From Acidimicrobiia bacterium (GTDB taxonomy: Bacteria; Actinomycetota; Acidimicrobiia; Spongiisociales; ZC4RG35): a stretch of 64,000 bases of DNA. This document shows, piece by piece, positions 4,175 to 40,494 of this stretch. A program made the translations under genes and the position numbers. The first letter of the stretch is position 1. Every line of letters begins with the position of its first letter. The stretch spans positions 1-64,000 of the forward strand of contig CBDBCY010000001.1 of NCBI GenBank assembly GCA_965203555.1, written 5' to 3'. Below the pieces are notes generated by a model. The model saw only the letters and a program-made list of their open reading frames with translations, was not told where the DNA came from and made no database searches.

Positions 4175-4208
4175 TCAGCGCCGACGGCGGGGCCCCGACC
4201 GGCGGGAG

Positions 4209-6188
4209 CTACTGGTAGCTGACGAAATAGACAGTCGGTTTCAGATCCAGAACCTGCTGGGGCTTGGGAGTGGGAAAGTCCTCATCGAAGAAATTCTTCC
4301 ATCCCCACCACCACTCGCGATCCTCCGTGTTCCTGGTGATGACGTTCCAGGTGCTGTATTTGGCGCCCAAACCTCCCTGACCGTCCATGTGGATCATCAC
4401 CGCCAACTCGGGCGGGGTCCTGATCAGATCTCGATTGGGGATCATGTCGGTGCGGAATTGGTGGACTATCAATAGCTTCTGGGGCAGCCTCTCTCTTCTG
4501 ACCAAGTCGGCCAGCCAATCGACCACCGTGTTGACCTCGGAACCGTCCACCGAGCCTATCTGGATCAGGTGCACCTCGTTGGGGCCCAGACGCCACTCGG
4601 GATCGAGCGCCAAACCCACATGGGGAAGCTTGAGCAGTTCCTCGTACTGCTTGGCCTGGCTGAGGAAGTCGCTTCGCCCCGGCTGCAGGTCCAACACCAC
4701 GTAGGCGCCGTTCTGGGCGGCGTACTCCACCCATGGCATCACGGTGTCGATCTTGTACTCTCCCGAATAGTCGCCGTCCGCTCCGGCCGCGCTGGTGGCC
4801 AGGGTGGTGATAATCTCGAAGGTCGGGATTGTCATGATCCCGTCGGCGGCGTAGTCCTCCAGATACGGCGCCAGGCGCTTCACGGTCTCCGCCGGTCTTT
4901 GTTCCCCCAGCACTCCCAACTTACTGCTGTTGACGGCGCCGTAGAAGGCCACCAGGCGCCGGTGGGGAAACAGGATGTGTCCTCCGCCGGGCAATTCTTC
5001 TCCCCACAGCGTCGTCTCCAGCAGCCACCTTTCGGATTCGGGCATCTCCCCCACGATCCACATCTCCTCCATCTCCTCGACCTGCCCGACAAGGGGACGG
5101 ACGGCTTCCTCCAAGACCGCTTCCTCTTCGGGATCCCAGTAGACAGCCCCCTCTCCCAAATCGTATGCGGCGGCGGCGACCACCAATCCGGAGAAGGGCA
5201 GGTCGGGATCCACCGCCCACAGACGGGGAGAACGCAGGGGCCGGGTGGAGGTTCCCATGACGAGGCCGTCGGAAGGCGGCGCCGAAGGCGGTGAGAACGG
5301 GGAGAGAACCATGCCCAGTCCCCCGCCCATCATGACCAGGGAGTGCAGGGACCGGTGATCGGAGACCGGGAAGTAACCGGTGCCCACCGTCGGGTGAAAG
5401 AACTCGATCCATCCCATCAGATCTTCCAGTCGCGAAGGCAATCGAACCACTTCAGTCCCGGCGGGGGCCAAGGACCGGGGCACCCCCGCCATCATCCAAA
5501 TCTGTCTGGGCGCCAGTCGCTCCAGTTCCGCCGCCAGTTCTTCCTGCCAGGGTGATTCCGACAGGTAGTAGAGGAAAGGAGCGCTCTGGAGAACGGCCAG
5601 TTGAGCGGCGACCGCCGCCGTATGGAGATCCGCCGGATGGGCCACTATCACATGGTCGGCGCAGGGGTACAGCCTCTGGGAGACGGCAATGGCGAGAGAG
5701 GCCGGATTGCCCCCGTCCAGTTCCACCACCTGCGGAGAAGACGACTCTCCGCTATTGGCGCCGGGAGACGCCGCTTCGCAGGTCCTGGTCGGGTCGAAGG
5801 CGGCAATCGGCGGAGGGACATAGACCATTTCTGTCGGCGGTTGAGCAGTCGAAGTTGCGGTGGAGGCAGGGGACGGGGGAACCGCGATGACTCGGGAGGC
5901 TGCGGACGCGGTGGTGACGGGAGGTAACGAGACGGAAGCCCCCGGAGATGGGGAGGGGTTTTCCGGCGACGGACCTTCCGTCTGAAAGGCGGATCCCGAG
6001 TTGACCGCGTCGGCGGCCTTGGACAGAGAGGCGCCCATTGGGCCGGGATGGTCGTTGGCGGCGCCGAGAATCATGAAGGCGACCGCCACCATCGCAATCG
6101 CCGCCGGAGTACCGAGGCCGCTCGCTAACCGACGCCTGGGAACTGTGGCTCTATGCATCAGACTCCCTGCCGACGAGTGACTCATCAA
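4209..6188 (-). CDS. exported protein with Pro/Ser-rich linker, cell-wall-binding-like region and conserved actinobacterial C-terminal domain
   Basis: 659-aa ORF; N-terminal TM segment; RRLVAFYG...LDLQPGRSDF...VGLALDPEW...LIVHQF motifs. Confidence 0.7.
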   Translation of the reverse strand: MMSHSSAGSLMHRATVPRRRLASGLGTPAAIAMVAVAFMILGAANDHPGPMGASLSKAADAVNSGSAFQTEGPSPENPSPSPGASVSLPPVTTASAASRVIAVPPSPASTATSTAQPPTEMVYVPPPIAAFDPTRTCEAASPGANSGESSSPQVVELDGGNPASLAIAVSQRLYPCADHVIVAHPADLHTAAVAAQLAVLQSAPFLYYLSESPWQEELAAELERLAPRQIWMMAGVPRSLAPAGTEVVRLPSRLEDLMGWIEFFHPTVGTGYFPVSDHRSLHSLVMMGGGLGMVLSPFSPPSAPPSDGLVMGTSTRPLRSPRLWAVDPDLPFSGLVVAAAAYDLGEGAVYWDPEEEAVLEEAVRPLVGQVEEMEEMWIVGEMPESERWLLETTLWGEELPGGGHILFPHRRLVAFYGAVNSSKLGVLGEQRPAETVKRLAPYLEDYAADGIMTIPTFEIITTLATSAAGADGDYSGEYKIDTVMPWVEYAAQNGAYVVLDLQPGRSDFLSQAKQYEELLKLPHVGLALDPEWRLGPNEVHLIQIGSVDGSEVNTVVDWLADLVRRERLPQKLLIVHQFRTDMIPNRDLIRTPPELAVMIHMDGQGGLGAKYSTWNVITRNTEDREWWWGWKNFFDEDFPTPKPQQVLDLKPTVYFVSYQ

Positions 6189-6581
6189 GCATGCTCAGGG
6201 CGCAACTGTCCGATCAGGGGCATAGGAAGTGGAACCAAGGCTAGGAGAACATCATGCCGAATCGCGGTAACCACCAAGCGCCGCGCCCACCTTCATGGGA
6301 ATGTGACGGTTTGGTCCACGCGATTCCAACAACGTTTACGGCGGGGCGCCCCCAAGGCGCCCCGGATCCGTGGGCCCCGACCGGCGAAGTGCGGGGCCGC
6401 CCGGCCAATCCGAGATGTATGAAAAGGCGAGAGCCCTATGGGGTGTTGACCACCATCCCTTGCCTGCACCGTGCAGGCACTTCGGGATAGAGACCACCTT
6501 GGCAACAGAGGTCCGTCGCTTTTCCATCACCCACTATCCTCGGTCACCAGCAGGTATGTCCAACTCACGGAGGGGATGTAG

Positions 6582-7316
6582 ATGACAGCGACACCCCAGA
6601 ACAAAATAGGCGGTCTGTTGCTGGTCATCGGCACGTCCTTGGTGCTCGTTACAGGCTTGCTGACTCCTGGCCTGGCGGTAATCGACTTTGTGGATGCGGA
6701 CGACTTCATCGGTATGGGCCGGGTCATACAGGAGAACGTGGCACTCAGTTTCTCCACCACCATGCTGGGAGTGCTCGGGTTTATCCTGCAGCTTTACGGA
6801 GTCCTGGTCTTACGCCGAATGGCAATGGGAGAAGGCGCCATCGATACCATCGCCAGATTCGGATCCATGGCTCTCGGATTGGGAGTTGTCATCTCCGTAA
6901 TTGACCGGGCAGCGCTGTACACGGCCACCCACACCCTGGTATACGGCATCGGCGCAGGCACCGGACCCGATCAGTCACAGCTGTTGGACCTTGTTGCCAT
7001 AATCCTGCTGAAAACGCAAGCCGGACTAAACCTGATGGCGTTTTATGCCTTCCTTCTGGGAACCATCGCACTAGGTGTGGGTTTTTTGACCAGAACCCGT
7101 TCCGCCTCTCAAAAGGCTGTCGCGGTCCTCACAGTCCTGGCCTGTCTGGTATCACTGGTATTCGTCGCCGTGATCAGCCCCTTCTACGGCGTGGCCAGCT
7201 CTTTTTTCCTGCTATTCGCCGCAGGAGCTCTGCTGGGAAACATTTGGCTCATCATGCTGGGGACCGGCCTTTACAGAGGAACCCTGGAACATTTGAATAC
7301 CAGCGACTCGGATTAG
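6582..7316 (+). CDS. integral membrane protein, function unknown
   Basis: 244 aa with about 6 hydrophobic helices; GGAGG RBS. Confidence 0.7.
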   Translation: MTATPQNKIGGLLLVIGTSLVLVTGLLTPGLAVIDFVDADDFIGMGRVIQENVALSFSTTMLGVLGFILQLYGVLVLRRMAMGEGAIDTIARFGSMALGLGVVISVIDRAALYTATHTLVYGIGAGTGPDQSQLLDLVAIILLKTQAGLNLMAFYAFLLGTIALGVGFLTRTRSASQKAVAVLTVLACLVSLVFVAVISPFYGVASSFFLLFAAGALLGNIWLIMLGTGLYRGTLEHLNTSDSD

Positions 7317-7861
7317 CGAAGATTCAATTCGGGACACATGCGTCCAAATGTGCCGTGGTGTGCCCCAGTATTCATGTTTCATAGGTATTGCACAGCGGTC
7401 AGACCCGCCCCGGAACTGGGGAGCACCTATCAGTTATGAGTCGAATGAGGCTTAGTTATGGGACTGTCCCTCCGGCTATCGCCTTCCCTCCCGTGCTGAT
7501 CCAGTACTCAACTGAAGGCCGGCATGAACAGAGAAAACCCCATGGCAACTCTGCGAGGTCGGGGTTTTGCAAAACAGAAAACCTTTCCATTCGAATCTTG
7601 ATTCATCGGGATGGATAGTGTCCGGATCAAGCAAGGTCAAGACCGGCGCCAGCGAGCAGTGGAGATCCTTCGACTGGCGACTCGAAGGTTGGGACGCTGA
7701 ACGCATGACGTCAAATGGCAGAAAACCTGGTACTTTACCTTTTTTCGATGTCATTTCTTATAATCAACCTCCGCATAACATCGACAGTTTCCAATACAGC
7801 TAACAGATCGACAAGGTGGCAAACCCCGCTCCGCAAGCCAGCGGCTATCTCTGAAAGCAGT

Positions 7862-7894
7862 ACGATTCACTTTGTAACACGATTCACTTTGTAA
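7862..7894. promoter_or_regulatory. perfect 16-bp direct repeat ACGATTCACTTTGTAA x2, possible operator
   Basis: Copies at 7862-7877 and 7879-7894, upstream of the PAS-LuxR gene. Confidence 0.5.
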
Positions 7895-7981
7895 GATGTT
7901 ATTCTTTCCCGCCCCATGTCGAGCACATCAGAAAGATCCCATTCTCCTCTGTCCGGCCGATGATTCGCGTCAGGTGGACCA

Positions 7982-8653
7982 ATGACGCAGAGTGAGATTC
8001 TTCGAATACTGACAAAAGCGGAGTGCGGCGCCTATGTGATGTCACTGGATCAAACCATCCTTTTCTGGAACGAAGGCGCCGAGCGAATCCTTGGCTATCG
8101 ATCCGATGAAGTCCTCGGTCGAAGGTGCTACGAGATGATGACAGGACTGCTTCCCGGAGGTTTCAATCCCGCATGTCTGCACGGTTGTCCTTCAATCCGC
8201 GCAATCAGGGCCGGGCTGGTTCCCACGCAACTCACCATGCGGATACTCTGCGCGTCGGGGGAAGAAAAGACAGCTTCTCTGACTCCCTTGGTGGTTGCAG
8301 GCTCCGAAAACGACGAACCGCTGCTCGTGCACCTGTTGGACGACCGTCCCAAACCAAGAGAGAGCGACCGCATCCCTGCAGAACTCAAGAGCGAATTACG
8401 AAAACGGGGCGCCGACATCGTCTCGGACCACCCCGTCACCCTATCAGACGAGGAGAGAGTCCAGAAGCTGACCCACAGGGAATTGGAGGTACTTCGCCTG
8501 GTGTCACAGGGTTGGAAAGTTCTTCGCATCGCAGAAGAACTGGGCATTAGTCCGCACACGGTTAGGAACCACATTCGCAATCTCCGCCAGAGGCTCAATG
8601 CCAAAACCAAGCTGGATGCCGTCATGACAGCCATCCGAGTGGGCATCCTGTAA
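7982..8653 (+). CDS. PAS-domain LuxR-family transcriptional regulator
   Basis: PAS motif ILFWNEGAERILGY; C-terminal LTHRELEVLRL...IAEELGISPHTVRNHI HTH. Confidence 0.92.
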   Translation: MTQSEILRILTKAECGAYVMSLDQTILFWNEGAERILGYRSDEVLGRRCYEMMTGLLPGGFNPACLHGCPSIRAIRAGLVPTQLTMRILCASGEEKTASLTPLVVAGSENDEPLLVHLLDDRPKPRESDRIPAELKSELRKRGADIVSDHPVTLSDEERVQKLTHRELEVLRLVSQGWKVLRIAEELGISPHTVRNHIRNLRQRLNAKTKLDAVMTAIRVGIL

Positions 8654-9011
8654 CGAATCCGACCTTTAGGGAACCGGACTTCCCAAACGAACTGGACCGG
8701 ACTGCCGGCAATCGTAGGTACCCGGAAAGCGCCACTTCCAGCACCCGGTCGGACCCTGCACTTGCAGATCGGGCATCATCTCAACCTATGGCGGTATGGA
8801 TAAGACGAACAGACTCGTTTGCGAACCGGAGGGGCCATCAAGCAGAACCGCAGCCCGCAAGAAGGAGCGGAACCATGAGATTGTTGACAACCGCGCGTTC
8901 TTCCGCCGCAAAGATCTGAAGTAGTATCAGCGTTGATCCGGCTTGGGTTTTCGGAGACCGTCGGGGAGCCAGCGTCGAGATCACCGGATACGCGGTCTGA
9001 GAGGAACGGAC

Positions 9012-10187
9012 ATGTTGGATATAGATCCAGTGGTAGTGGTTGGGGCGGCTCGAACCGCCATAGGAACATACGGAGGATCCCTGAGCGGAATCGACGCCTA
9101 CAAACTCGGCGCAGTCACGATAAAAGAGTCGCTGAGTCGGGCCGGGGTCGAGCCCGAGGAGGTCGACGAGGTGGTCATGGGCCAGATCGGCCAGGTGGGT
9201 CCCGACGCCTACAACGCGCGGCGTTGCGCACTGGAGGCCGGCCTTCCTACCTCCACCACCGCCATGAACGTGAACCGACTCTGCTCATCCGGCCTGCAGG
9301 CGATCATCACCGGCGCCCAACAGGTCATGCTGGGATCGGCGGACATAGTGGTCGCCGGGGGGGACGAGAACATGAGCAGTCAGCCGTTCCTGGACTACCA
9401 GGCCCGTGACGGTTGGAAGCTGGGTCCCAGGAAGATCATCGACGGAACCCTGTCGTTGGTGAGCGACCCCTTCGGCGGCTATCCGATGGGCGCCACGGCC
9501 GAGAAGGTAGCCGACCGTTACGACATAACCCGCGAGATGCAGGACGAGTTCGCCGCCGAAAGCCAGCGCCGCGCCGCAATCGCCATCAAGGACGGCCTGT
9601 TCGAGGATGACATCGTCGGTGTGGATCGCCCCCGGGACAACCCGTTCCTCGTCGACGAACACCCCCGGCCGAACACCACCGTGGAAACCCTGGCCCGCCT
9701 GCGTCCCGTCTTTGCAAAAGGCGGTTCGGTAACGGCAGGTAACTCTTCTGGAATTAACGACGGCGCCGCCTCGATGGTCCTGATGAGCGAGAAGACAGCC
9801 GAGGCCCGCGGCGCCCAACCCCTGCTGCGCCTGGTGGCCTGGGCGGTCAGCGGCATCGATCCGGAGGTGATGGGCTACGCACCCGCGCTCGCCGTTCCAA
9901 AGGTGCTCGAAAAGGCCGGTCTCACCCTCGACGACATCGACCTGATCGAATTAAACGAGGCGTTCGCAGCCCAAGCGGTGGCGGTAATCCGCGACGCCGG
10001 CCTCGACCCCGAGAAGACCAACATTGACGGAGGCGCCATCGCGCTCGGTCACCCGGTCGGCGCCACAGGAGCGATCCTTACGATCAAACTGATGAGAGCA
10101 CTGGAGCGCATAGACGGCCGCCGCGGCATCGTCACCATGTGCATCGGCGGAGGCCAGGGCATGGCAGCCATCTTCGAACGCCCCTGA
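9012..10187 (+). CDS. acetyl-CoA C-acyltransferase (thiolase)
   Basis: [51 protein letters not shown]. Confidence 0.96.
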
Positions 10188-10265
10188 CTGCTGCTAGAAG
10201 CCCAATTGATGACGTAGGTGTGTGGAAGGGCCTGTGCCCGAGTTTGGACAATGCGACAGGTCACC

Positions 10266-10296
10266 TTGACAATCTGCCTTTAACTGTGTACAGTTA
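10266..10296 (+). promoter_or_regulatory. TA promoter with palindromic operator
   Basis: TTGACA (10266)-17 nt-TACAGT (10289), overlapped by palindrome TAACTGT-GT-ACAGTTA. Confidence 0.7.
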
Positions 10297-10326
10297 TTGC
10301 AATCGCAAACTCAGGAGATCTCTTCG

Positions 10327-10566
10327 ATGACTCCAACGCCACTCACCCAGGCTCGCAATCGTCTCAGCGAGATCGTGGACGAGGTGACAGCCACTGGATC
10401 CGAATTCGTAATCACCCTACACGGAAAGCCAGCCGCAGTGGTCATGGGTTACGAGGACTACGAGTCCCTAATCGAGACACTCAACATCCTCTCTGACACC
10501 GAAGCCATGAAGGCGTTGACCGAAGCCGAGGATGATCTCGCTGCGGAGCGCCTGGTCAACCTGTGA
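10327..10566 (+). CDS. Phd/YefM-family antitoxin
   Basis: LTQARNRLSEIVDEV...ITLHGKPAAVVMGYEDYESLIETL. Confidence 0.92.
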   Translation: MTPTPLTQARNRLSEIVDEVTATGSEFVITLHGKPAAVVMGYEDYESLIETLNILSDTEAMKALTEAEDDLAAERLVNL

Positions 10567-10579
10567 TCAGCCCGGTCCC

Positions 10580-10822
10580 ATGCCCAGGCTGACCAACCGG
10601 GCCAGAAAGGACTTCGACAAGCTACTTCCCACACTTTCCGGTAAGGCTCGGGAAATCATGAAACGCTTGGACAACCAACCACATATGGGAAAGAAGCTCA
10701 TGGGACCCCTGCGAGGCAAGCGTTCTACTCGCCTGGGCCGTTCCCACCGCATCATTTACACACTTGTCGACGGTGAGGTGATCGTGCTCACGATTACGCC
10801 AAGAAGGGATGCCTATCGGTGA
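10580..10822 (+). CDS. RelE/ParE-family toxin
   Basis: GKKLMGPLRGKRSTRLGRSHRIIY...RRDAYR, directly after the Phd gene. Confidence 0.88.
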   Translation: MPRLTNRARKDFDKLLPTLSGKAREIMKRLDNQPHMGKKLMGPLRGKRSTRLGRSHRIIYTLVDGEVIVLTITPRRDAYR

Positions 10823-11127
10823 CGGGAAACAGGATCAAACGGCAGCAGAGAGATGATCTTCTTGGCCAGGTCAGGGGGCAGGTGGGAAAGAGTCTCTTCC
10901 GGCTGGTGATCCGATAGCAGAGCGAGCCGCGGGGCCGACACATGAAGTGGTCAGCCCCAAGTTACTTTGATCTGGGTTTCGAGAGAACTCTGACAGAAAA
11001 TGGCGTCCGCAACCCTCGCCACCCGCTCGAAGTCCTCGGGAGCAGGGGCCTCACCGTGAACATTCCCCAACGTCACGTCGGGATCCTCCGAGAGTCCGAC
11101 TATCTCTTCGTAATCTAGCTTCGTCAC
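10813..11127 (-). pseudogene. orphan MgtE-N-like putative antitoxin, copy A, with in-frame TGA at 10951-10953
   Basis: VTKLDYEEIVGLSEDPDVT...SSLETQIKVTWG*PLHVSAPRLALLSD...LPPDLAKKIISLLP aligns end to end with 14339-14641; no partner gene downstream. Confidence 0.8.
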
Positions 11128-11215: not shown

Positions 11216-11971
11216 TCAGAAGAGAAACAGCAGGGCCACAGTCAGGCCGGCGACAGCAGCCCCCACGGTAGCGGCCAATAAGAAGCAACCGGCCTTACGC
11301 TTTGCCGGGGGCGGTTCGGCTCTTCGGGTCCGTTGAAAGGGGGGCGGTTCGGCTCTTCGGGTCCGTTGAAAGGGGGGCGGTTCGGCTCTTCGGGTCCGTT
11401 GAGAGGCGGGCGGTTTGACCCATTGATCAGGCTGCCCACCTGCTTCTATGGTTTCGGTGAGCTTCTCAACTACATCCCACGGCCGTCTGTTGACGGTTCT
11501 GCCTTTCAGGAATCCATCCACTTGGGACCACAACCGGGGAAGCTCGTGGTCGGCGACCAGCGCCATCATCTCCCAATTGTTCTGCAAACCCTCTCTGGTT
11601 AGATTGGCCGACCCGATCATGGCCGCCGTGGCTGAGGTGCGCCAGGAGTCCGCGACTATCCAGCTCTTTGTATGCATAACGGACGCCCCTTGAGAACTCT
11701 TGGATGTCTGATACCAGTTGAGAACCCTCACATCCTTTCGACGCAGGAACTCGAGAGCCCGGCGACGGTCGGTATCAGTGGCGATCTGGAACCGGTGCTT
11801 TTTGGTGTCTCCGATGACGACCGTCACCGTCCTACCGCGTGTGTTTTCCTGCAGCCAGGCCAAACCCCACACACTGGCGAATCCGACCATCACATACAGA
11901 TGACCGTCAGGATGATCCCTGAGAAACCGCTTGATGTGTTCCTGACTGTTACTGCCGATCATTGATCCCAT
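11216..11971 (-). CDS. phospholipase D-family (HxK) nuclease-like protein with repeat linker and C-terminal TM helix
   Basis: MHTKSWIV...IGSANLTREGLQNNWE motif; GCFLLAATVGAAVAGLTVALLFLF tail. Confidence 0.75.
   Translation of the reverse strand: MGSMIGSNSQEHIKRFLRDHPDGHLYVMVGFASVWGLAWLQENTRGRTVTVVIGDTKKHRFQIATDTDRRRALEFLRRKDVRVLNWYQTSKSSQGASVMHTKSWIVADSWRTSATAAMIGSANLTREGLQNNWEMMALVADHELPRLWSQVDGFLKGRTVNRRPWDVVEKLTETIEAGGQPDQWVKPPASQRTRRAEPPPFQRTRRAEPPPFQRTRRAEPPPAKRKAGCFLLAATVGAAVAGLTVALLFLF
11306..11415. repeat. 33-bp tandem repeat x3 within the PLD gene
   Basis: GCGGTTCGGCTCTTCGGGTCCGTTGA starts at 11311, 11344 and 11377; encodes QRTRRAEPPPF. Confidence 0.95.
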
Positions 11972-12094: not shown

Positions 12095-12718
12095 TCAGGT
12101 TCCCCCTCGGGACAACAAAGCGGCTTCTATTCTCGCTCCCACGGTGGTGTCCCGGTATCCCCGACCGCTGAGCAGTTTCCGGAGGGCCTCCATGGGCAGA
12201 TGCTCCAACGCCCACGTCTCCGCGTATAGGCACCTCATTGATCCCCTCGGAGCGAGCACGCGGGAGGCGATGTACCACGAGTGCTTGGACACCCGCAGGT
12301 ACCACGGGTCGGGTCCCGACCAGAACAGCCACCAGAACTGGGGTGGCACGCCATCATCACCGGCGCCGGGGGGCTGGTAGCGGGGCACCGCCTCCCCCAG
12401 GAGGTCCCCCCGGGGGATTTCCCTCCACAATTTGGCCTGCCTACTCCGGTAATACCAACGGACTTTTGTCTCCACTCCCGTGACGTACCCTCGGAACGCC
12501 AACCGCTCGAAAGCCTCTCGGGCGTGCTCCGGGTCCAGGTTGGCCGCCCTGGCGAGATATCCCGTCTCGACACCCCAGGGGAACTCTCGCGAAACCGCCA
12601 ACGCCGCCCCTTCGCAGCGGGGCAGGCCTGTGCACGGCCCGTCCGACGGGAACACAAACCCCGCAGGAGAACCGCCCTCGCCCACCGCGGGGCAACCGCA
12701 ACCAGGTAAGCCGACCAT
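12095..12718 (-). CDS. hypothetical protein; wHTH-like region plus LFW...YIASRVL region resembling DUF6922
   Basis: YLARAANLDPEHAREAFERL; PPQFWWLFWSGPDPWYLRVSKHSWYIASRVL; start uncertain. Confidence 0.5.
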   Translation of the reverse strand: MVGLPGCGCPAVGEGGSPAGFVFPSDGPCTGLPRCEGAALAVSREFPWGVETGYLARAANLDPEHAREAFERLAFRGYVTGVETKVRWYYRSRQAKLWREIPRGDLLGEAVPRYQPPGAGDDGVPPQFWWLFWSGPDPWYLRVSKHSWYIASRVLAPRGSMRCLYAETWALEHLPMEALRKLLSGRGYRDTTVGARIEAALLSRGGT

Positions 12719-12767: not shown

Positions 12768-12841
12768 GTTTCACCGCGGATGGCGAGCAATCACCTCCTC
12801 AGTCGACACGCATTGACAGCCACCTCTTTAGACCGCGCCGT
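12768..12841 (-). pseudogene. 5' remnant of gene X (MARTKEVAFNAL...EELIARHPRW), decayed copy
   Basis: Reads TARSKEVAVNA/EEVIARHPR*; nucleotide match to about 13960-14030. Confidence 0.75.
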
Positions 12842-12932
12842 GTTCCTCGCCTCAATCTGGGGTCTCGAAAGGACAAACGCATGAGCAAAGCGACCGACCC
12901 CCCTTAATCCCCACGATGTGTCTGATCTCGGC

Positions 12933-13193
12933 TCATATCTCAAACATGTAAAGGAATTCGGAACAGGGCTTGTTGGCGTGGAAGACAAGAGCTTGGCTGG
13001 TATTGATGAGAACAATGGTGGGAAGTCCCTGCATGTCCCATCCAGCTACCGCTACGATGTTCTGCCGCCCGTGCATCTGATCGGTGTCCACCCTCACATT
13101 CCTGCGAAGAACGCGCTCGATGTCCTTCACCGTGCGGTGCTTCAAAGCAGCAGGATGAACCCTCAGACGCTGGCCGTGAAACCAGATCGGCAC
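12933..13193 (-). CDS. BrnT/RelE-like putative toxin, module copy B
   Basis: AALKHRTVKDIERVL...AGWDMQGLPTIVLIN...VFHA; paralogous to 14094-14342 and 49867-50133. Confidence 0.65.
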   Translation of the reverse strand: MPIWFHGQRLRVHPAALKHRTVKDIERVLRRNVRVDTDQMHGRQNIVAVAGWDMQGLPTIVLINTSQALVFHANKPCSEFLYMFEI

Positions 13194-13205
13194 AGCCGTT
13201 TGGCT

Positions 13206-13505
13206 TCAGAGACCTGGAACAGGCAGGCGGGTCTCTACTCTAACTCGGAAGTCGGGGGGTAGAAGGGACAGCAGAGTGGCCTTGTCCGACTTGGTCGCCA
13301 TGCTGAGAATGTCCGCCGCTTCCTCGGCGCCCACCTCCAGCAAATGGCTCACCTGATGCTCGGTCTCCCAACCGGCAAAAAGCCCAAACGCCCACTCTCG
13401 TACCTGCTCTTTCGTTTCAGGCCCGGCCGGGGCACCTTTCCATCCCAGTTTTCGACCGGGATCGTTCAAGACCTCGATCATCTCGTCGACAGACATGTCC
13501 CTCAC
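13206..13505 (-). CDS. MgtE-N-like putative antitoxin, module copy B
   Basis: DEMIEVLNDP...EEAADILSMATKSDKATLLSLLPP; -10 TACTCT 7 nt before GTG. Confidence 0.7.
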   Translation of the reverse strand: MRDMSVDEMIEVLNDPGRKLGWKGAPAGPETKEQVREWAFGLFAGWETEHQVSHLLEVGAEEAADILSMATKSDKATLLSLLPPDFRVRVETRLPVPGL

Positions 13506-13583
13506 AGATAGAAGAGTACAACCAACTAGGAACTAAACCTACACGTCACAAGATCCCGACCATGCCGCAAGTGGACTTCCACC

Positions 13584-13925
13584 CTAGTTCACGCCCAGCA
13601 ATTCCCGGTAGCGGGCGGCGGACATGGGGTGGCGGCCGAGGTTCGGCTATGGCTATCACTGCTTCGAGTCGCTGCAGGTTGGAGGCGATCAGCTCGTCGC
13701 GGTGGGGGTAGCGCCAGACGGTGTCCTCCATTCCCAGGCGGACGTGAAGGCCCATGAGCATGGCCGGGGTGACCAGGGTAGACCGAGGGGCGCCCGGCGG
13801 CGGCACATGCCGAGATGATCGAGTCGGGGTTGACATAGAAGATGGAGTCGAACATGCGGGGCACGCCCTTGATCACTTGCCGGGGGTTTGCAGGGGCTGC
13901 CGCCGGGGAACGGGGTACCACCACA
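13584..13925 (-). pseudogene. diverged, frameshifted duplicate of the BKACE 3' end
   Basis: Aligns to 16777-17122 (GLHVRLGMEDTVWRYPHRDELIASNLQ) with substitutions and indels. Confidence 0.9.
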
Positions 13926-14030
13926 CAGCACAGCCTCGGCAGTCACCAGGCTCTTGTTCCAACGCGGATGCCGAGCGATCAACTCCTCGGCCAGCAACGC
14001 ATTGAAGGCCACCTCTTTGGTCCGCGCCAT
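13925..14030 (-). pseudogene. 5' remnant of gene X fused to the BKACE fragment
   Basis: MARTKEVAFNALLAEELIARHPRWNKSLVTAEAVL then switches to BKACE-derived sequence. Confidence 0.75.
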
Positions 14031-14093
14031 GTCATTCTTAGATTACGATCGGAGTTACCGGTTCCGGCGATCCTTCACTTCGGGTGTTCCCCG

Positions 14094-14342
14094 TCATCCC
14101 GACCCATGACCGAAAAGGCCGTGATACTTTCTTTCTGACTTCTGGGCGTGAAACACAGCATCTGTCTCCATGTCGAACATCACCACTATGGGAAGGCCCT
14201 GCTTGGTGAACCCTCCGATCGAGATGATCTCATCGCGCGGAAAGTCGGCCTCTGCTCCAGCCGGATGGGCAAGCACCCAAAGAATATCTTCTTCTGAGAA
14301 TCTCTTCAACGCTGAAGCGAGAATCCTGGGCGGTGAGGTCAA
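14094..14342 (-). CDS. BrnT/RelE-like putative toxin, module copy C
   Basis: SALKRFSEEDILWVL...GGFTKQGLPIVVMFD...VFHAQK; TTG start overlaps upstream TGA. Confidence 0.7.
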   Translation of the reverse strand: MTSPPRILASALKRFSEEDILWVLAHPAGAEADFPRDEIISIGGFTKQGLPIVVMFDMETDAVFHAQKSERKYHGLFGHGSG

Positions 14343-14641
14343 GTAACGCCGACAGGCAGCAGAGATACGATTACGTCCGCTAAGTCAACCGGCAGGCGGG
14401 AAAGCACCCTGTCCCGGTCGCTGTCGGACAGCAGAGCCAGGTGGCTCGCCGCAACGTGCGACGGCATGCCCGAGACAAACTCGATCTGGGTTTCGAGGGA
14501 GGACCGGCAGAAAAGCACACCCGCAACCTCGGCTACCCTCTCCAACTCCTCGGGGCTGGGGGACCGACCACGGACATCGTCGAACGTCACATTGGGATCT
14601 TCGGAAAGCGCAATGATCTCCTCGTAATCCAGTTCCGCCAC
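14339..14641 (-). CDS. MgtE-N-like putative antitoxin, module copy C
   Basis: VAELDYEEIIALSEDP...DRVLSRLPVDLA; -10 TAGACT 7 nt before GTG at 14641. Confidence 0.72.
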   Translation of the reverse strand: MAELDYEEIIALSEDPNVTFDDVRGRSPSPEELERVAEVAGVLFCRSSLETQIEFVSGMPSHVAASHLALLSDSDRDRVLSRLPVDLADVIVSLLPVGVT

Positions 14642-14701
14642 AGAGCGCAGTCTATCGCCTCCACCGGGCAAAGAGCAGAATGGTTGGCGATCCTTCAAGA
14701 G

Positions 14702-14763
14702 GAGGTTTTCGGCTATGGCTCGGCCACCAACGCATTGAAAGCTACCTCTTTGATCCGCGCCAT
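14702..14763 (-). pseudogene. short gene X head joined to a 19-bp BKACE piece
   Basis: MARIKEVAFNALVAE joined to GAGGTTTTCGGCTATGGCT, identical to 16831-16849. Confidence 0.75.
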
Positions 14764-14769
14764 GGTCTT

Positions 14770-15314
14770 TTATGCACTCCGTATTCGGTCGACGAGTTTC
14801 CAGATTTCGCTGCTCGGGTTGGATCGTGGTTGTCGACCATCCCCGTCATGCTTCTTGTCGAGCTTCTGCGCCCGCCTCTTTGCATTGCCATACCGATCGG
14901 CGAGCACGTCCAGCAACTCGCCAGGCAAGGCCTTCTTATCCCATGCCAACACCCGCTTGGAATGCCTCTGAGCATCGTGGCGTTCGATATGAGCGTCCTG
15001 ATCTCCGAAGTGGAGGATGAACCACAACTCTATGCAGGGGTTGGAGACAGCAAGATGGATGTCATTCGCCCTGGCCATTTCAATGGAGTCAGGGATCCTG
15101 GAGTGCCTGTCCACATCAAAGACACACCAATACTCAGCACTACTTGGGCTGCGTCCGGTGTAGCGACGCTCCTCGCGGCTCTGTTTAGTCTGGCCCAGTA
15201 TTTAAGGTAACTGACTTCCGTCTTCTTCCCCTCTGTGAATACCACGATTCGCTTCCGGTTGTCGGGTGAGGGCGTTCCTATCTTTTTTTGGCTTCCGGGC
15301 AACCCCCGTCTCAT
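14770..15314 (-). pseudogene. rloB: RloB-family protein, split by a frameshift near 15180
   Basis: IVVFTEGKKTEVSYL in one frame; YWCVFDVD...SNPCIELWFILHF in another. Confidence 0.82.
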
Positions 15315-16654
15315 CCGACACCAGCAGTTACAAGTTCCGCGGCTGCGTCGGTGTCACCGATGGAGAGAATCGGCCTGGCGCCGTAATAGCCCTGCCGGTA
15401 ACGCTTTTCTATGGCCTCCTGTTTGCGAGGTCCAAAGTCTGTGAGTGGATAGAGGCGCGTGGCCCCGTCGTTGAGCTTCTCAGTGAACCAAATCTGGTCG
15501 CGACCCAAAGGTCGGCTACCTGATGCATCGCCTAGCAACTGCATGTCGTGGGAGTTGAAGATGAGTTGGGCGCACCGTGTGTTGGTCTCGGGATCTTGGA
15601 ACACCCTCAGCAATTCCTGCACCAGTCTCGGATGGAGACTCGTATCCAATTCATCGGCCAAGAGAACGGAGCCGGATGCGAGGGCTCTGAGGACCGGGCC
15701 GATCAAACCGAACCAGACCAGCGTGCCGCTGGACTCGTCGGCTTCGTCGAGTTCAATCTCCCCGGTGACTCCACCATGAACGAGTTGCACTCCCATAATC
15801 GGATCGGAGGCCAAGATGGGCTCCTCCTCGATCCCCTCATCATGCAAAAAACGAAGAAAGCGTTGAACACGCTCCTGCTCAACAGGATCCATCTTGACCT
15901 TGCGAGCGCCGGTGATACCCAGATCAGCCGCCCTCAGCAAATGCAGGACCGCCTTCCGGTCGCGGGCGTCGTCAAGCATCTCGGTAGTAAAAGCCATGCG
16001 AACAGGACGGTCATCGGCATCGGCCAGCATCAGGTTGTCCTCGAACCACTGGTAAATTGGCAACAGAAGAGGGTGATTTGCTGAAGCGGCGGTCGACAGG
16101 AACAACGCGTTGGGTCGTAGGAGCTCTTGGACTGCCCGCCCCTTGCCCCGCAAGGACGCGCCCAGATGCACGCCTGCCGTATCACGATGGAATAGCAATG
16201 CCGCTCGCCCTTTCGGATAGCGGTAGGCCCACTCCTCGACCACTCGGTCATCGTCGATTGCGAATCCGTACCGGTGCAACACACCCCTCAGCACGATCTC
16301 AATCTGGTAACGCGACGGCTGCGCCTTGGACTGCTCGTCAAGCAGAAAAGGCTGACGAGGCATCCCGCCACCCGGACGGAAATGTCGAAATGAAAACAGC
16401 ACATAGTTCTGCATATCGTCCATTACCTTCAGCAGATTGCTCTTGCCGGAGGCGTTGGCGCCGAAGACGCCGGCGGCGGGCAACACGGAGAGCGGCTTAC
16501 CACCCTCGCGCCAAGGCAGCTCACGCACGAAGTCCGGCTCGGACAAGGAGGTGGCGGCCATCGAGAGCACGGCTTCGTCTCGGAAGGACCGGGCGTTCCG
16601 GGCTCGGAACTCAATCAGAGCGGACGGGTAACAACTTGGATTGTGATCGCTCAT
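15311..16654 (-). CDS. RloA-like ABC-type (AAA_21) ATPase
   Basis: Walker A GANASGKSN, ESSGT, DELDTSLHP, QLIFNSHD, RDQIWFTEK, YRQGYYGARP; paired with rloB. Confidence 0.9.
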   Translation of the reverse strand: MSDHNPSCYPSALIEFRARNARSFRDEAVLSMAATSLSEPDFVRELPWREGGKPLSVLPAAGVFGANASGKSNLLKVMDDMQNYVLFSFRHFRPGGGMPRQPFLLDEQSKAQPSRYQIEIVLRGVLHRYGFAIDDDRVVEEWAYRYPKGRAALLFHRDTAGVHLGASLRGKGRAVQELLRPNALFLSTAASANHPLLLPIYQWFEDNLMLADADDRPVRMAFTTEMLDDARDRKAVLHLLRAADLGITGARKVKMDPVEQERVQRFLRFLHDEGIEEEPILASDPIMGVQLVHGGVTGEIELDEADESSGTLVWFGLIGPVLRALASGSVLLADELDTSLHPRLVQELLRVFQDPETNTRCAQLIFNSHDMQLLGDASGSRPLGRDQIWFTEKLNDGATRLYPLTDFGPRKQEAIEKRYRQGYYGARPILSIGDTDAAAELVTAGVG

Positions 16655-16776
16655 AACCTCAATATAGACAAAAACCTGCGCTATATCTCAGAAAACAACC
16701 AAATTCATCCATTGTGAACATCCGCCGTAGCGTCGAGGTCCTAGGTCGAACCCGGATGTTCCCTCCACCTTGAGCC

Positions 16777-17781
16777 TCAGTCCAACCCCAGCAACTCCCG
16801 GTAGCGGGCGGCTGACATGGGTTGGCGGCCGAGGTTTTCGGCTATGGCTATTACGGCTTCCAGTTGCTGCAGGTTGGAGGCGATCAGCTCGTCGCGGTGG
16901 GGGTAGCGCCAGACGGTGTCCTCCATTCCCAGGCGGACGTGGAGGCCCATGAGCATGGCCAGGGTGACCAGGTATACCGAGGGGCGGCCGGCGGCGCACA
17001 CCGAGATGATCGAGTCGGGATTGATGTCGTGGATGGAATCGACTATCCGGGTCAGGCCCGAGATCATCTGGCTGGGGTTGTGCATGGGGCTGCCACCGGG
17101 GAGCGCCGGCAGCACCACCCAGTAGAGGGGTTCTTCCAGCAGGCCCGATTCGATCAGATAGCGGCGGGCGTTATCCACGTCGGCGTCGGTGTAGACGGCG
17201 ATTTCGGGCTTCACCCCGGCCTCCATCAGGATGCGGGTCTTCTCGATAACCACTGCCGGAGGCTTGGCGAACAGGGTGTCGCCGCAGAAGGTGGCGGTGG
17301 TGTTGACCGGCGACCCGGTGATCAGGCCCGAATTGCTGATCTTGATCATCTCGTTCCAGTCGTCGGGACCGATCGCCACCTCTCCCGCCGACACGTACAG
17401 TTCTTCGAACTCATCACGGAGCGGCTCGATGATGGTGACGAAACGGGCCAAGTCCAGGATGGACCACTCCGCCTCGTTGCGAACATGGATGTGCAGAGCG
17501 GTGGCACCGGCCCGCATGCAAGCCCTGCCTGCTTCCATGATCTCCTGTTCGCTGATGGGCTGGGCCGGATTGTGGCGGGTCATGAAAAACCCGCCGGTGA
17601 GCGCAACCGAGATGGCCACCTCTTCGGAAATGGGCCAGCGGGGCGCCACGTCAACGTCGGCGTAGGCGGAGGTGAAGGGATTGGTTATGTCGGGCATCCC
17701 GTAGGGCTTTAGCACCGCCCGGGTCTTGCTCCGCTGCATGTATGCGTTGACTCGGTCCCATTTGATTCTGTCGTTTGCCAT
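16777..17781 (-). CDS. beta-keto acid cleavage enzyme (BKACE / 3-keto-5-aminohexanoate cleavage family)
   Basis: ISVALTGG...AGATALHIHVR...GVKPE...GLHVRLGMED. Confidence 0.9.
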   Translation of the reverse strand: MANDRIKWDRVNAYMQRSKTRAVLKPYGMPDITNPFTSAYADVDVAPRWPISEEVAISVALTGGFFMTRHNPAQPISEQEIMEAGRACMRAGATALHIHVRNEAEWSILDLARFVTIIEPLRDEFEELYVSAGEVAIGPDDWNEMIKISNSGLITGSPVNTTATFCGDTLFAKPPAVVIEKTRILMEAGVKPEIAVYTDADVDNARRYLIESGLLEEPLYWVVLPALPGGSPMHNPSQMISGLTRIVDSIHDINPDSIISVCAAGRPSVYLVTLAMLMGLHVRLGMEDTVWRYPHRDELIASNLQQLEAVIAIAENLGRQPMSAARYRELLGLD

Positions 17782-24787: not shown

Positions 24788-26835
24788 GGAGCAGCCGCAC
24801 GAATGCGGTCCGCCCACTCGGCCAATTCGGGACGTTCGTCATAGATGGCCGCCACCGCGGAGCGGAAGGCGTCCTTGTTGACGTCGTTGACTTCCCAGCC
24901 CTGGTTCTTCAGTTCCTCGAGGTAACCGTCGTCCAGCTTGGCCGCCTCGGTGCGCTGGTGGGCCGCAGCTTCTATAGCCGCCTGCTGCACCAACTGCTGA
25001 GCCGCCGGGCCGAGACTGTCGAACAGGTCGCCACCCATGAACATGAGAAGCGCCGCGTAGATGTGCTCGGTGAGCGACAGGTACTTGACCGGCGTCTCGT
25101 AGTACTTCTGCGTAACCGCCGCGAAGATCGGCGCGCCGGTCCCGTCCACCACACCGTTCTGCAGCGACGTGAAGATCTCCGGACCGGGCAGAGGCACCGG
25201 ATTGGCGCCCACCAACTCGTAGGTACGGATGTAAATGTCAGACTCCGGCACCCGGAACTTCAGACCGGCCGCATCTTCGGGATTGACGATGGGCCGCTGG
25301 CTGTTCATCATCGAACGCAGACCGAACTGGCCGATCGCCAACGCCTTGATGTCGACATCCTCGGCCAATGCGAGTAGGTCTCGTCCTACCGGACCGTCGA
25401 ACACCGCATTCACATGGTCCTGGCCGTCGAACAGGAACGGCAAGTTCACCACACCCATCTCGGGCACGAAACTCTCCAGCAACCCGGCGAACACCACACC
25501 GGCATCGATCGAACCCAACTGGGCGCCCTCGACCAACTCACGCTCGCTTCCGATCTGAGAAGACGGGAACACTTCCACCGTCATCCGACCACCGGAACGC
25601 TCTTCGACCAACTCCTTGAACCTGACGGCCGCCACATCGGCATAACCACCCGGTGCGCCCGAATGCCCGATATTGATCGTAACCTCGGGCAGGAGGGAGA
25701 CGTCAACTGCGCCGCTGGGGCTCACGGCCCGGATGCGGTCGGCCCACTCGGCCAACTCGGGACGCTCGTCATAGACGCCCGCCACCGCGGAGCGGAACAG
25801 GCCCTTGTCGACGTCGTTGACTTCCCAGCCCTGGTTCCTCAGTTCCTCGAGGTAACCGTCGTCCAGCTTGGCCGCCTCGGCGCGCTGATGGGCAGCCGCG
25901 GCGGAAGCCGACTGCTCGATCAGGTCCTGGGCCTTGGGGGGCAGGCTGTCCCACAACTCACCCGACATGAACATGAGAAGCGCCGCGTAGATGTGCTCGG
26001 TGAGCGACAGGTACTTGACCGGCGTCTCGTAGTACTTCTGCGTAACCGCCGCGAAGATCGGCGCGCCGGTTCCGTCCACCACGCCGTTCTGCAGCGACGT
26101 GAAGATCTCCGGGCCGGGCAGAGGCACCGGATTGGCGCCCACCAACTCGTAGGTACGGATGTAAATGTCGGACTCCGGCACCCGGAACTTCAGACCGGCC
26201 GCGTCGGAGGGGGTATAGATGGCCCGCTGGCTGTTCATCATCGAACGCAGACCGAACTGGCCGATCGCCAGCGCCTTGATGCCCACGTCTTCAGCCAGAC
26301 CCAACAACTCGCGTCCCACCGGACCGTCGAACACCGCATTCACGTGGTCCTGGCCGTCGAACAGGAAGGGAAGGTTCACCACGCCCATCTCGGGCACGAA
26401 GCTCTCCAGAATCCCGGCGAACACCACACCGGCGTCGATCGAACCCAACTGGGCGCCCTCGACCAACTCACGCTCGCTTCCGATCTGAGAAGACGGGAAC
26501 ACTTCCACCGTCATCCGACCACCAGAGCCTTCTTCGACCAACTCCTTGAACCTGACGGCCGCCACATCGGCATAACCGTCAGGAGCGCCCGAGTGCCCGA
26601 TGTTGATGGTGACCTCGGGATAGTCGGGCTCGGCCGGCTCATCCGGAGTTTCGGCCGGCTCATCCGGAGTGTCAGCCGGTTCATCCGGAGTTTCGGCCGG
26701 TTCGTCCGGAGTGTCAGAAGGCGCTGCAGTGGTAGTTACCGCGGCCTCGGTGGTGGCAGTGGGCTCATCGTCTCCGTCTCCGCATGCCGCGGCCAAGAGA
26801 GCCAGAACTCCCAGAACTGCTATGAATTTTCTCAC
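24784..26835 (-). CDS. dctP: TRAP substrate-binding lipoprotein with two tandem DctP domains
   Basis: Lipobox LAAACG; FPSSQIGSERE...GLKFRVP...LQNGVVDG present twice. Confidence 0.93.
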   Translation of the reverse strand: MRKFIAVLGVLALLAAACGDGDDEPTATTEAAVTTTAAPSDTPDEPAETPDEPADTPDEPAETPDEPAEPDYPEVTINIGHSGAPDGYADVAAVRFKELVEEGSGGRMTVEVFPSSQIGSERELVEGAQLGSIDAGVVFAGILESFVPEMGVVNLPFLFDGQDHVNAVFDGPVGRELLGLAEDVGIKALAIGQFGLRSMMNSQRAIYTPSDAAGLKFRVPESDIYIRTYELVGANPVPLPGPEIFTSLQNGVVDGTGAPIFAAVTQKYYETPVKYLSLTEHIYAALLMFMSGELWDSLPPKAQDLIEQSASAAAAHQRAEAAKLDDGYLEELRNQGWEVNDVDKGLFRSAVAGVYDERPELAEWADRIRAVSPSGAVDVSLLPEVTINIGHSGAPGGYADVAAVRFKELVEERSGGRMTVEVFPSSQIGSERELVEGAQLGSIDAGVVFAGLLESFVPEMGVVNLPFLFDGQDHVNAVFDGPVGRDLLALAEDVDIKALAIGQFGLRSMMNSQRPIVNPEDAAGLKFRVPESDIYIRTYELVGANPVPLPGPEIFTSLQNGVVDGTGAPIFAAVTQKYYETPVKYLSLTEHIYAALLMFMGGDLFDSLGPAAQQLVQQAAIEAAAHQRTEAAKLDDGYLEELKNQGWEVNDVNKDAFRSAVAAIYDERPELAEWADRIRAAAP
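24795..26620. repeat. near-identical intragenic duplication, 930-bp period
   Basis: TCTTCGACCAACTCCTTGAACCTGACGGCC at 25601 and 26531; long identical tracts throughout. Confidence 0.95.
26635..26718. repeat. 21-bp repeat x4 encoding a TPDEPA(E/D) linker
   Basis: CGG(C/T)TC(A/G)TCCGGAGT units. Confidence 0.9.
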
Positions 26836-31768: not shown

Positions 31769-32042
31769 CACCCACCTCCGAGGCAAACCTCATACCATAT
31801 GGCAGTTACGGGTCTTCCGCTCTTCTTGGCTAATACTCGGGCATGGTAACGATGCTCCTTCTCACCCGCCGACCTGCCCTGAATATGCCTTCAGAAAGCC
31901 CAGGAGTCCCCGATCTCCCATCCCATAGGACCCCGTAAAGCTAGCCTCCGAAAATGGACAGAGCTGGGTTTGCCGTTGCGCATCGGGCAAAAGCGTCAAT
32001 ATCCTCCACAAAGCCCAGGCGGAGAACGGGATCGTTCAGCCG

Positions 32043-33062: not shown

Positions 33063-33257
33063 CCTGGACGCGGACATCTCAGCTTCCTGTTGCGGGTCCC
33101 CGCTGCACACACCGCTTCTCATGACGGCCCGCTCCCCAACCCGCCGACAACACAGTTAACCTCTGAGAATGGACAAAGGCTCGCCATGGTTTGCCCTCCG
33201 CGGTCACCTGTCGCCAGCCCCTAGCGAGTCGGAGCGGAAAGTGGGATCGTTCGATCG

Positions 33258-34277: not shown

Positions 34278-34434
34278 AATCGCCCCCCGGTATCAGCTGC
34301 CACAGAGAGGCCCGCTTCCCCGCACAGGGGCCTCACCGGAAAGCTAACCTCCAAGGGCACGAAGCGCGCCAGCGGCAGCCCGACAGAGTGGTGTCGCCAG
34401 CTCCACCAGACCAGAGAACAGGATCGTTCGAGCG

Positions 34435-40457: not shown

Positions 40458-40494
40458 TCGGGGCGATCGACGACCGACCTTTCCCGGGCGCGGT

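Follow-up and report, generated by a model that had tools for sequence, protein, structure and literature searches.

Results

A tandem array of gene fragments and cargos downstream of BKACE

The DNA analysed here, referred to as the window, is a stretch of 64,000 nt from an Acidimicrobiia bacterium (assembly GCA_965203555.1, contig CBDBCY010000001.1, positions 1–64,000), and the locus in question is a tandem array, read on the minus strand, that starts at an intact gene for a beta-keto acid cleavage enzyme (BKACE; nt 16777–17781, minus strand; Pfam PF05853, E 9.7e-46). BKACE closes a metabolic operon and constitutes the border of the array on the upstream side. Along the minus strand it is followed by an AbiL gene pair, the head of a gene here designated X (head 1), a 19-nt piece of BKACE, a small gene pair (module C), a second X head, a BKACE tail, another small gene pair (module B) and a third X head. 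Three units can be recognised downstream of the intact BKACE, each closing with the first 45 to ~115 nt of gene X, and units 2 and 3 open with a piece from the 3' end of BKACE, exact over 19 nt in unit 2 and 86.5% identical over 343 nt in unit 3. Within the units, order and orientation are constant: BKACE 3' end, stop codon, spacer, cargo, ~12–40 nt of native X upstream region and X start. Three tandem units of BKACE tail, cargo and X head had been described in an earlier note on this DNA and, barring four corrections, all the parts were found where it had placed them.

Self-comparison of the window recovered both the BKACE and the X repeat families, and the array repeats far exceed chance. 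The BKACE tail (nt 13586–13928) aligned to nt 16779–17122 of the intact gene with 86.5% identity over 348 columns (E 3.5e-110). The 19-mer at nt 14702–14720, identical to nt 16831–16849, has two matches in the window against 0.01 expected, a number reached in 0 of 100 shuffles. X head 2 matched head 1 at 91.3% over 46 nt (E 6.4e-12) and head 3 at 80.5% over 77 nt (E 1.8e-12). These values, together with joins that fall at X nt 45 in one case and at X nt ~100–115 in the other, bear out the previous claim that the border copies are diverged and joined at different points.

The 19-nt piece (minus strand) corresponds to the positions 54–72 nt before the BKACE stop codon, is fused directly to X head 1 and carries neither of the native BKACE flanks; all three BKACE copies contain this 19-nt stretch. 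The BKACE tail of unit 3 (minus strand) is a pseudogene made of the last ~345 nt of the gene, stop codon included, and is a mosaic of near-identical and diverged parts. Its 5' 120 nt are 73–83% identical to the intact gene, with at least four indels (several of 1 nt), and the remainder is 90–100% identical (93–100% in the middle), with exact runs common to tail and intact gene of up to ~77 nt. A 2-nt deletion lies near the 19-nt stretch and the indels are at least five overall. In the alignment BKACE homology stops at about the BKACE stop codon, and the intact BKACE runs on into cargo 1. At three positions the translated tail carries R, F and V, residues found in the majority of the 15 members listed for the BKACE cluster (94 members at 90% identity) but not in the intact copy of the window, which indicates that the tail and the intact 3' end have different allele histories.

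X head 1 (nt 14719–14763, minus strand) comprises the first 45 nt (15 codons) of X with two amino acid changes (T4I, L13V), and matches four intact X genes from other genomes (see below) at 39–41 of 45 nt. X head 2 (nt 13915–14070, minus strand) is made of ~40 nt of X upstream region followed by X nt 1 to ~100–115, the X part starting at nt 14030 and ending at nt ~13915/13948. It matches the intact X genes at 66–71 of 76 nt and tblastn aligns X aa 1–45 to it; the differences are synonymous only and 33/33 codons agree with the X consensus, which indicates derivation from a functional X gene. X head 3 (nt 12768–12843, minus strand) is the most decayed, with the ATG turned into ACG and one indel: 58–60 of 75 nt, with one gap, match the intact X genes, the local alignment halts at X nt 75, and tblastn aligned X aa 15–40 at 52% identity (E 0.4), with a weak continuation that perhaps reaches nt ~12720. 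The four intact X genes match among themselves at 63–72 of their first 76 nt.

Junctions and decay of the remnants

The X-to-BKACE joins lie at 2–8 nt of common sequence. In the first, X nt 45 is joined to BKACE position −72 with 2–3 nt in common; in the second, X nt ~100–115 is joined to BKACE at about −345/−370, within nt 13912–13948, by short matches common to both genes. Microhomology is thus found at the illegitimate end of both joins, as in homology-facilitated illegitimate recombination (HFIR), whose junctions typically show 3–10 bp of microhomology (PMC3240628). Joins at such short microhomologies are what illegitimate recombination, the process put forward in the earlier note, predicts. 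Upstream of the ATG, ~12–40 nt are conserved when heads 1 and 2 are aligned with the intact X genes. Given the constant internal order, each unit resembles a contiguous genome segment with its cargo between BKACE and X.

The decay of the remnants, namely the indels of the BKACE tail and the lost start codon and indel of head 3, indicates that they are old and real. Combined with junctions that exist in no parental arrangement, it argues against a misassembly of mixed strains. Judged from the decay of their sequences, module B and head 3 would rank as the oldest layer; head 1 being more altered than head 2, the AbiL pair and module C may have come in either order.

The cargos

Cargo 1 consists of a RloA/AbiLi AAA ATPase gene (nt 15311–16654, minus strand; PADLOC AbiLi E 2.8e-87, Pfam AAA_21 E 1.4e-37) and of a RloB/AbiLii gene (nt 14770–15314, minus strand) whose frame is interrupted. 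The rloA-rloB pair previously announced is indeed present; rloB, however, is split into two overlapping open reading frames (ORFs; nt 15030–15314 and 14770–15114, 85-nt overlap). The Pfam RloB match (E 2.4e-19) spans only profile positions 84–195 and falls in the C-terminal piece, and PADLOC AbiLii matches both pieces. The interruption may reflect either a pseudogene with a real frameshift or a sequencing error.

Cargo 2 (module C; nt 14094–14698, minus strand) is a two-gene operon, a toxin-antitoxin (TA)-like pair made of an MgtE_N-like partner gene, from nt ~14650 to 14339, and an 82-aa toxin-like gene (nt 14094–14342), with a 4-nt overlap. Cargo 3 (module B; nt 12933–13505, minus strand) is likewise a TA-like pair, with a 99-aa partner (nt 13206–13505) and an 86-aa toxin-like gene (nt 12933–13193). 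By BLASTP the two genes of module B are 31% (E 4e-11) and 29% (E 2e-9) identical to those of module C. The statement that the same borders bracket three different cargos holds for AbiL versus the small pairs; modules B and C, on the contrary, are homologous to each other.

The 82/86-aa toxin-like family is tiny, with 10 representatives at E<=1e-3 among 1.84 billion, and no family for these proteins was returned by Pfam, PHROGs, NCBIfam or PADLOC. The AlphaFold2 model of the module C protein (pLDDT 88) is a small alpha/beta fold whose best PDB match is a chain of a Salmonella TA complex (7vd7_A, E 0.043, prob 0.99), followed by BrnT, HigB and RelE at lower rank, none reaching E<=0.001. The Atlas puts the protein beside the clusters RelE/ParE (0.91) and DUF4258 (0.90). 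The upstream partner of the pairs shows weak resemblance to the MgtE_N domain. These leads are weak, and modules B and C can tentatively be regarded as TA-like pairs on model-based grounds.

Module C is flanked by a 12-nt direct repeat, TGAAGGATCGCC, at nt 14066–14077 (minus strand) and nt 14686–14697. Its 11-mer core has exactly two exact copies in the 64-kb window, and the other modules carry no similar flanking repeat. Comparison of the flanks of the module copies retrieved no common motif and no cassette-specific ends.

Gene X is whole elsewhere and resembles type IIG enzymes

When the remainder of X was sought in the window by tblastn with four full-length X proteins, only the three heads matched, so that X is never intact here, as the first reading of the sequence had stated. 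A whole gene does exist elsewhere and encodes a protein of ~972 aa. The 41-aa head gave 22 matches at E<=1 among 175 candidates (14 proteins of 958–975 aa and 8 shorter fragments), with the start M-A-R-T-K-E-V-A-F-N common to 20 of the 22. Full-length X belongs to a large family, unnamed in the source databases: among 8,000 candidates scored, 5,883 reach E<=1e-5.

Profile evidence on the nature of X is weak: Pfam methyltransferase matches stay below cut-off, PADLOC MTase_II gives E 1.1e-11, and a PDB profile search reaches BrxX at E 0.12. The motifs D-L-A-C-G-T-G and N-P-P-F are invariant across 36 aligned X sequences. An AlphaFold2 model built from this 36-sequence alignment (pLDDT 75.7, pTM 0.79) retrieved with Foldseek 90 matches at E<=0.001, the best being the type IIG enzyme BpuSI (E 2.5e-17), then PglX/BrxX, DrdV, CamA and the type ISP enzyme LlaBIII. 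The full-length X relatives are thus predicted to combine, in a single polypeptide, an N-terminal nuclease, a gamma-type N6-adenine methyltransferase and a specificity domain. On the model, X is a putative fused nuclease-methyltransferase of the type IIG kind. The suspicion that the heads are the start of a restriction-modification (RM) enzyme, initially a weak one, gains strength from the BpuSI match and from the N-P-P-F motif.

As a side observation, the metagenomic proteins P0035, P0003, P0004, P0005, P0150 and P0007 are broken copies of the border genes BKACE or X. Among these metagenomic contigs, a BKACE homologue on a 1.29-Mb contig diverges after R-I-V-D-S and stops short at 254 aa, and several X ORFs are truncated or frameshifted after 52–235 residues. 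Broken copies of both border genes seem to be common in the clade.

Relatives carrying gene X

A degenerate X-head pattern scan of genome contigs identified four loci (L001–L004), all from Acidimicrobiia metagenome-assembled genomes (MAGs). X is full-length in 4/4, being split into two frames near aa 771 in L004. L003 comes from a close relative: its thiolase, whose counterpart in the window delimits the opposite side of the island described below, is 93.6% identical in amino acids and 85% in nucleotides, and its Phd/ParE proteins are 79–82% identical. In L003 the thiolase is succeeded by a DUF2283 gene, a 112-nt piece of thiolase, a gene homologous to the module B partner (89.8% aa identity), Phd/ParE, orf94 and the whole X in the same orientation as the window heads, with an insertion sequence (IS) transposase 0.4 kb upstream of X and then the contig end. 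L003 is the only one of the four loci with X in the same thiolase-side island, and its contents indicate that X belongs to this island in a relative, the BKACE side being out of view.

In the L003 region 5194–6032, the 112-nt internal thiolase fragment (nt 5587–5698), which matches the thiolase gene of L003 itself at 108/112 nt, directly adjoins the module B partner homologue at its 3' end; the toxin-like gene is missing there. Placed after a new cargo gene, this fragment is a scar like those of the window, located at the opposite border and belonging to an independent genome.

In L002 (nt 3715–9230) and L004 (nt 3945–10521), X lies on an island made of tRNA-Leu(CAA), a tyrosine integrase gene, orf163, X and orf160 and adjoining polA. 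In L001 it follows a nucleotidyltransferase gene. These sequence contexts mark X as a mobile defence gene. L001 also contains a direct repeat of 113 nt without mismatches (nt 15131–15243 and 16165–16277), located 2 kb downstream of X, that flanks ~0.9 kb and overlaps the 5' end of an NmrA-like gene; by its sequence it may be another insertion with long target duplication.

The surrounding island and the search for mobility features

The array occupies the BKACE-proximal end of a 6.6-kb island, whose opposite limit is the thiolase gene (nt 8943–10187, plus strand). From this border the island contains a Phd/YefM-ParE pair (nt 10297–10822, plus strand), a broken module-C-like partner gene (nt 10813–11127, minus strand), a PLD/DrmC-like nuclease gene (nt 11216–11971, minus strand) and orf207 (nt 12095–12718, minus strand), a 207-aa ORF with no assigned function. 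The broken partner gene consists of two ORFs with 70% nucleotide identity to nt 14483–14658, has no toxin-like gene, and overlaps the ParE stop codon with its 3' end. No family for orf207 was found in PHROGs, NCBIfam or PADLOC, and a PDB sequence search with orf207 and the toxin-like gene gave no match below E 0.1. The GC content of the island is 55–60%, except for orf207 (65%), versus 62–66% in the flanks. The PLD/DrmC-like gene bears three copies of a 33-nt tandem repeat (nt 11307–11415), encoding P-P-F-Q-R-T-R-R-A-E-P units, before a hydrophobic C-terminal tail.

Integrase and recombinase families were found in none of the 80 ORF translations from the window, and the sole transposase-like match is an IS1-like ORF 40 kb away from the array. 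A tRNA search and an Rfam search returned nothing, the repeat search detected no inverted repeats at the cassette boundaries, and promoter and terminator counts in the region 10.1–17.9 kb were no higher than in shuffles. The locus had previously been called an integron-like array without attC sites or a local integrase. The absence of both holds; the likeness to an integron is instead mere analogy, since the defining features were tested and none was found: no IntI gene in the 80 ORFs, no attC-like inverted repeats, no shared flank motif, no Rfam match and no common crossover core.

The same signature at two other loci of the window

The self-comparison listed 17 repeat pairs in the whole window and revealed two further arrays of the same kind, so that the signature recurs at three loci within one window. 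The first involves an inositol-monophosphatase (IMPase) gene (nt 58689–59504), of which the 88-nt upstream region plus the first 178 nt (266 nt; intact-gene copy at nt 58601–58866) are repeated at nt 55687–55951 with 91% identity. A third, more diverged IMPase head lies at nt 54685–54833 (75%). The intervals hold different cargos, one being an unassigned stretch and the other an IS1-like gene (nt 55972–56733), orf153 and a decayed TA-like module. The middle IMPase head, which ends beside the IS1-like gene, is a mosaic like the BKACE tail. The IMPase array (nt 54634–58866) adjoins McrBC (nt 51574–54673).

The other array consists of two tandem units at nt 49492–51420, in which nt 49492–49932 match nt 50616–51062 (85% over 451 nt) and nt 50462–50590 match nt 51296–51420 (87% over 129 nt). 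The middles differ: one spans 530 nt with a toxin-like gene (nt 49867–50133; hhalign prob 94% to the module family) and its partner (nt 50143–50499), the other 233 nt with a 45-aa membrane-like ORF (nt 51083–51220). The toxin-like family or its remnants are found in or beside all three window arrays.

Other repeats were also observed in the window: three paralogous genes of ~1 kb each, mutually 77% identical, at nt 32022–35472; a DctP ORF with an internal 893-nt duplication (89%) at nt 24797–26619; and a 298-nt repeat pair, 90% identical, at nt 40464–41202. Further defence-type genes are a DUF222-HNH endonuclease gene (nt 42204–43490) and a HEPN-domain gene (nt 62865–63722) which, with McrBC, make the window rich in genes of this type.

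Discussion

Proposed stacking of alternative alleles at a variable slot

The best reading of the locus is that the chromosome retains three successive versions of one variable defence-gene slot, each with broken pieces of both neighbour genes. From the internal structure of the three units we infer a BKACE-cargo-X slot common to them. The sequence shows the architecture of the array, the microhomologies at its junctions, the decay of its pseudogenes, what kind of gene X is and the lack of recombinase and att features; these would be most economically explained by additive insertion of alternative alleles of this slot via HFIR, with addiction favouring retention, a reading towards which we lean rather than one we hold firmly. 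Stacking by illegitimate recombination fits the junctions and has clear precedents in type VI secretion system (T6SS) and rhs arrays and in RM insertions.

According to this reading, the thiolase-BKACE stretch would be an integrase-free hotspot for defence and TA genes in an uncultured Acidimicrobiia lineage, and X would once have lain downstream of BKACE with a small cargo between. As to the source of the DNA, segments from relatives, with different cargo between the same two genes, would have entered the cell more than once, and each time the incoming allele would have been added instead of replacing the resident one by two homologous crossovers. The anchored end would have recombined by homology, most probably within BKACE. 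At the opposite end, a break in the 5' part of X would have been followed by an illegitimate join, through microhomology of a few bases, to the 3' region of the resident BKACE. Each event would leave the old cargo where it was and add a full new one, along with a shortened X head and a BKACE 3' fragment that has been displaced. Addiction would account for the retention of the old cargo, as the resident cargos and X are presumed addictive (TA-like and RM, respectively) and their loss is expected to be lethal. The array would then be a fossil record of insertion events, with no function as an array.

Several observations weigh against this reading. BKACE was found upstream of X in 0/4 relative loci, within the <=10 kb in view (1.7 kb in L003, 4.2 kb in L002). 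Thus, the earlier idea of alleles of one variable slot is backed by the internal structure of the three units and not by a BKACE-cargo-X arrangement in the relatives. The L004 contig also holds a BKACE of at least 90% identity apart from X, and the tRNA-Leu/integrase island of L002 and L004 indicates that X also moves by other routes. Nor does decay change steadily along the array: head 1, expected to be the youngest if BKACE is the anchor, has two amino acid changes in 15 codons and head 2 none in 33. AbiLii is interrupted, although its cargo should be the most recent one. Unit 2 retains no more than 19 nt of BKACE, so that a further deletion must be assumed, and the 12-nt repeat around module C is unexplained by the model. 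As for an independent copy of a junction, the chimeric ORF spanning the second join (nt 13689–14030) has no exact match in the protein collection, and a homology search with it gave 4 matches, all of them X fragments and none covering >44%. The addictive TA nature of the small pairs leans on weak fold and Atlas leads. Finally, the reading presupposes DNA entry into the organism, by natural transformation or otherwise. The observation concerns a single genome, and no machinery was identified.

Alternative origins of the array

Identical topology, including direct X-to-BKACE joins at microhomology, is predicted if a segment of BKACE tail, cargo and X head was end-joined into a circle and integrated by a single, Campbell-type crossover in BKACE or X. 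Linear DNA has been documented to circularise and then undergo a single crossover (PMC3240628), circular intermediates have been proposed for rhs tip arrays formed by C-terminal displacement (PMC2935791), and the 12-nt repeat around module C could mark a small circle. We nevertheless consider this route unlikely, if credible: the homology offered to the crossover is short (45–345 nt) and no free or circular form is known; its product being the same as that of HFIR, the sequence cannot separate the two. Less probable still is an internal tandem duplication, by illegitimate exchange between X nt ~100 and BKACE about −345, followed by replacement of the cargo by foreign alleles through double crossover. 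Tandem partial duplications are indeed common in the window (17 repeat pairs, e.g., nt 49492–51420 and 32022–35472), modules B and C are one family, and the mosaic BKACE tail and middle IMPase head would fit later homologous exchange or gene conversion. Yet modules B and C, at ~30% amino acid identity and with no detectable DNA identity, are not recent duplicates, the two joins at different positions would require two independent duplications plus replacements, and a 45-nt head is very short as a replacement flank.

That a recombinase encoded elsewhere inserted integrase-less cassettes successively at an att site located in the 3' end of BKACE, a scheme akin to CIME-type accretion or to the tRNA-part repeats of additive genomic islands, appears very improbable to us. 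Repeats of the target-gene 3' end downstream of each cassette are a hallmark of additive islands (PMC4898812), none of the three BKACE copies lacks the 19-nt stretch, and X does lie on an integrase island in L002 and L004. Against this, the BKACE fragment ends vary and the join of head 2 lies 270 nt upstream of that stretch, which leaves no common crossover core; site-specific insertion does not make fragments of the downstream neighbour, such as the X heads; and neither an integrase in the 64 kb nor inverted repeats at the boundaries were found. Equally hard to credit is an assembly artefact, in which strains with different BKACE-X cargos would have been concatenated by the assembler. The source is a single, probably metagenomic contig of 92,426 bp, there is no second assembly with the junctions, and the long exact runs between BKACE and its tail would offer an opportunity for it. 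A graph mis-join, however, cannot make X-to-BKACE junctions that occur in no parental arrangement, nor does it explain a 19-nt piece without BKACE flanks. Pieces of live strains would be intact, yet the tail has accumulated indels and head 3 is without a start codon, and scars of the same kind are seen at two other loci of the window and in an independent MAG (L003).

Comparison with known systems

For the T6SS clusters of Vibrio cholerae, HFIR has been proposed to underlie the arrays of orphan immunity genes (Kirchberger et al. 2017, PMC5361080), and the rhs 'tip' arrays have been attributed to C-terminal displacement with homologous recombination via circular intermediates (Jackson et al. 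2009, PMC2935791). The present array resembles them in having a conserved anchor gene, lateral modules added serially, old modules and truncated 3' fragments pushed downstream, and no integrase. It differs in that the anchor is a metabolic gene, BKACE, instead of a toxin gene, and in that fragments of both neighbours (BKACE 3' and X 5') are repeated; moreover, the cargo is an AbiL pair plus RelE-like pairs and the host is an uncultured member of the Acidimicrobiia.

Insertion of RM genes with long target duplication has also been described (Furuta, Abe and Kobayashi 2010, PMC2853133, which cites an earlier H. pylori study). There, the inserts are selfish or addictive defence genes without a mobility gene, flanked by long direct repeats of variable length (>30 bp) that are single-copy at the empty site. 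In our arrays, direct repeats of 343 nt for BKACE, 46–77 nt for X and 266 nt for IMPase likewise flank defence or TA-like cargo; they exceed the 30 bp used in that work and the inserts stay under its 20 kb. The presence of R and M genes within the insert, also looked for there, does not apply, the cargos being AbiL and TA-like and the RM gene X being the border. Unlike in those cases, several insertions are stacked here, and the repeats are diverged and decayed.

Oliveira et al. 2017 (PMC5635113) reportedly described hotspots of horizontal gene transfer between conserved genes. Core defence hotspots, for their part, hold variable defence content between conserved marker genes with no scars of mobile genetic elements, transfer through flanking homology having been suggested, and how such integrase-free hotspots are built is stated as open (Johnson et al. 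2023, PMC10250203). The island described here likewise holds lower-GC, variable defence content between conserved chromosomal genes. The core hotspots described there show replacement-type diversity across genomes, whereas here scars of the flanking genes in one genome record additive events.

With an integron cassette array the locus shares tandem, small, promoter-poor cassettes of the same orientation downstream of a fixed point, and it differs in having no intI, attI, attC or common core, the cassette borders being fragments of the neighbouring genes. The additive flexible genomic islands at tRNA genes (Lopez-Perez and Rodriguez-Valera 2016, PMC4898812), integrase-driven and with a crossover site that stays constant, are similar in that cassettes pile up at one site, each leaving a repeat of part of the target. 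In our array the extent of the repeat varies and no tRNA or integrase was found. Full-text literature searches combining illegitimate recombination with defence islands or TA hotspots retrieved no description of such scar arrays, which is limited evidence of absence.

Biological meaning

One could go further and suppose that addiction-enforced stacking is a general integrase-free route by which defence hotspots are built, and that the clade-restricted RelE-like TA family may itself drive insertions with long target duplication, a role already proposed for RM systems; we regard this extension as rather doubtful. If true, replacing a resident addictive module, either TA or RM, would be lethal, and the survivors would be the rare illegitimate adders, in which fragments of the flanking genes are left as scars. 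For the locus itself, read as HFIR, the array would document legibly how a defence island can arise through illegitimate recombination of the additive, homology-anchored kind, with no need for a dedicated insertion enzyme. It would also extend the displacement-array pattern beyond the polymorphic-toxin loci (rhs, T6SS) to defence and TA genes beside a housekeeping operon, in a little-studied actinobacterial class.

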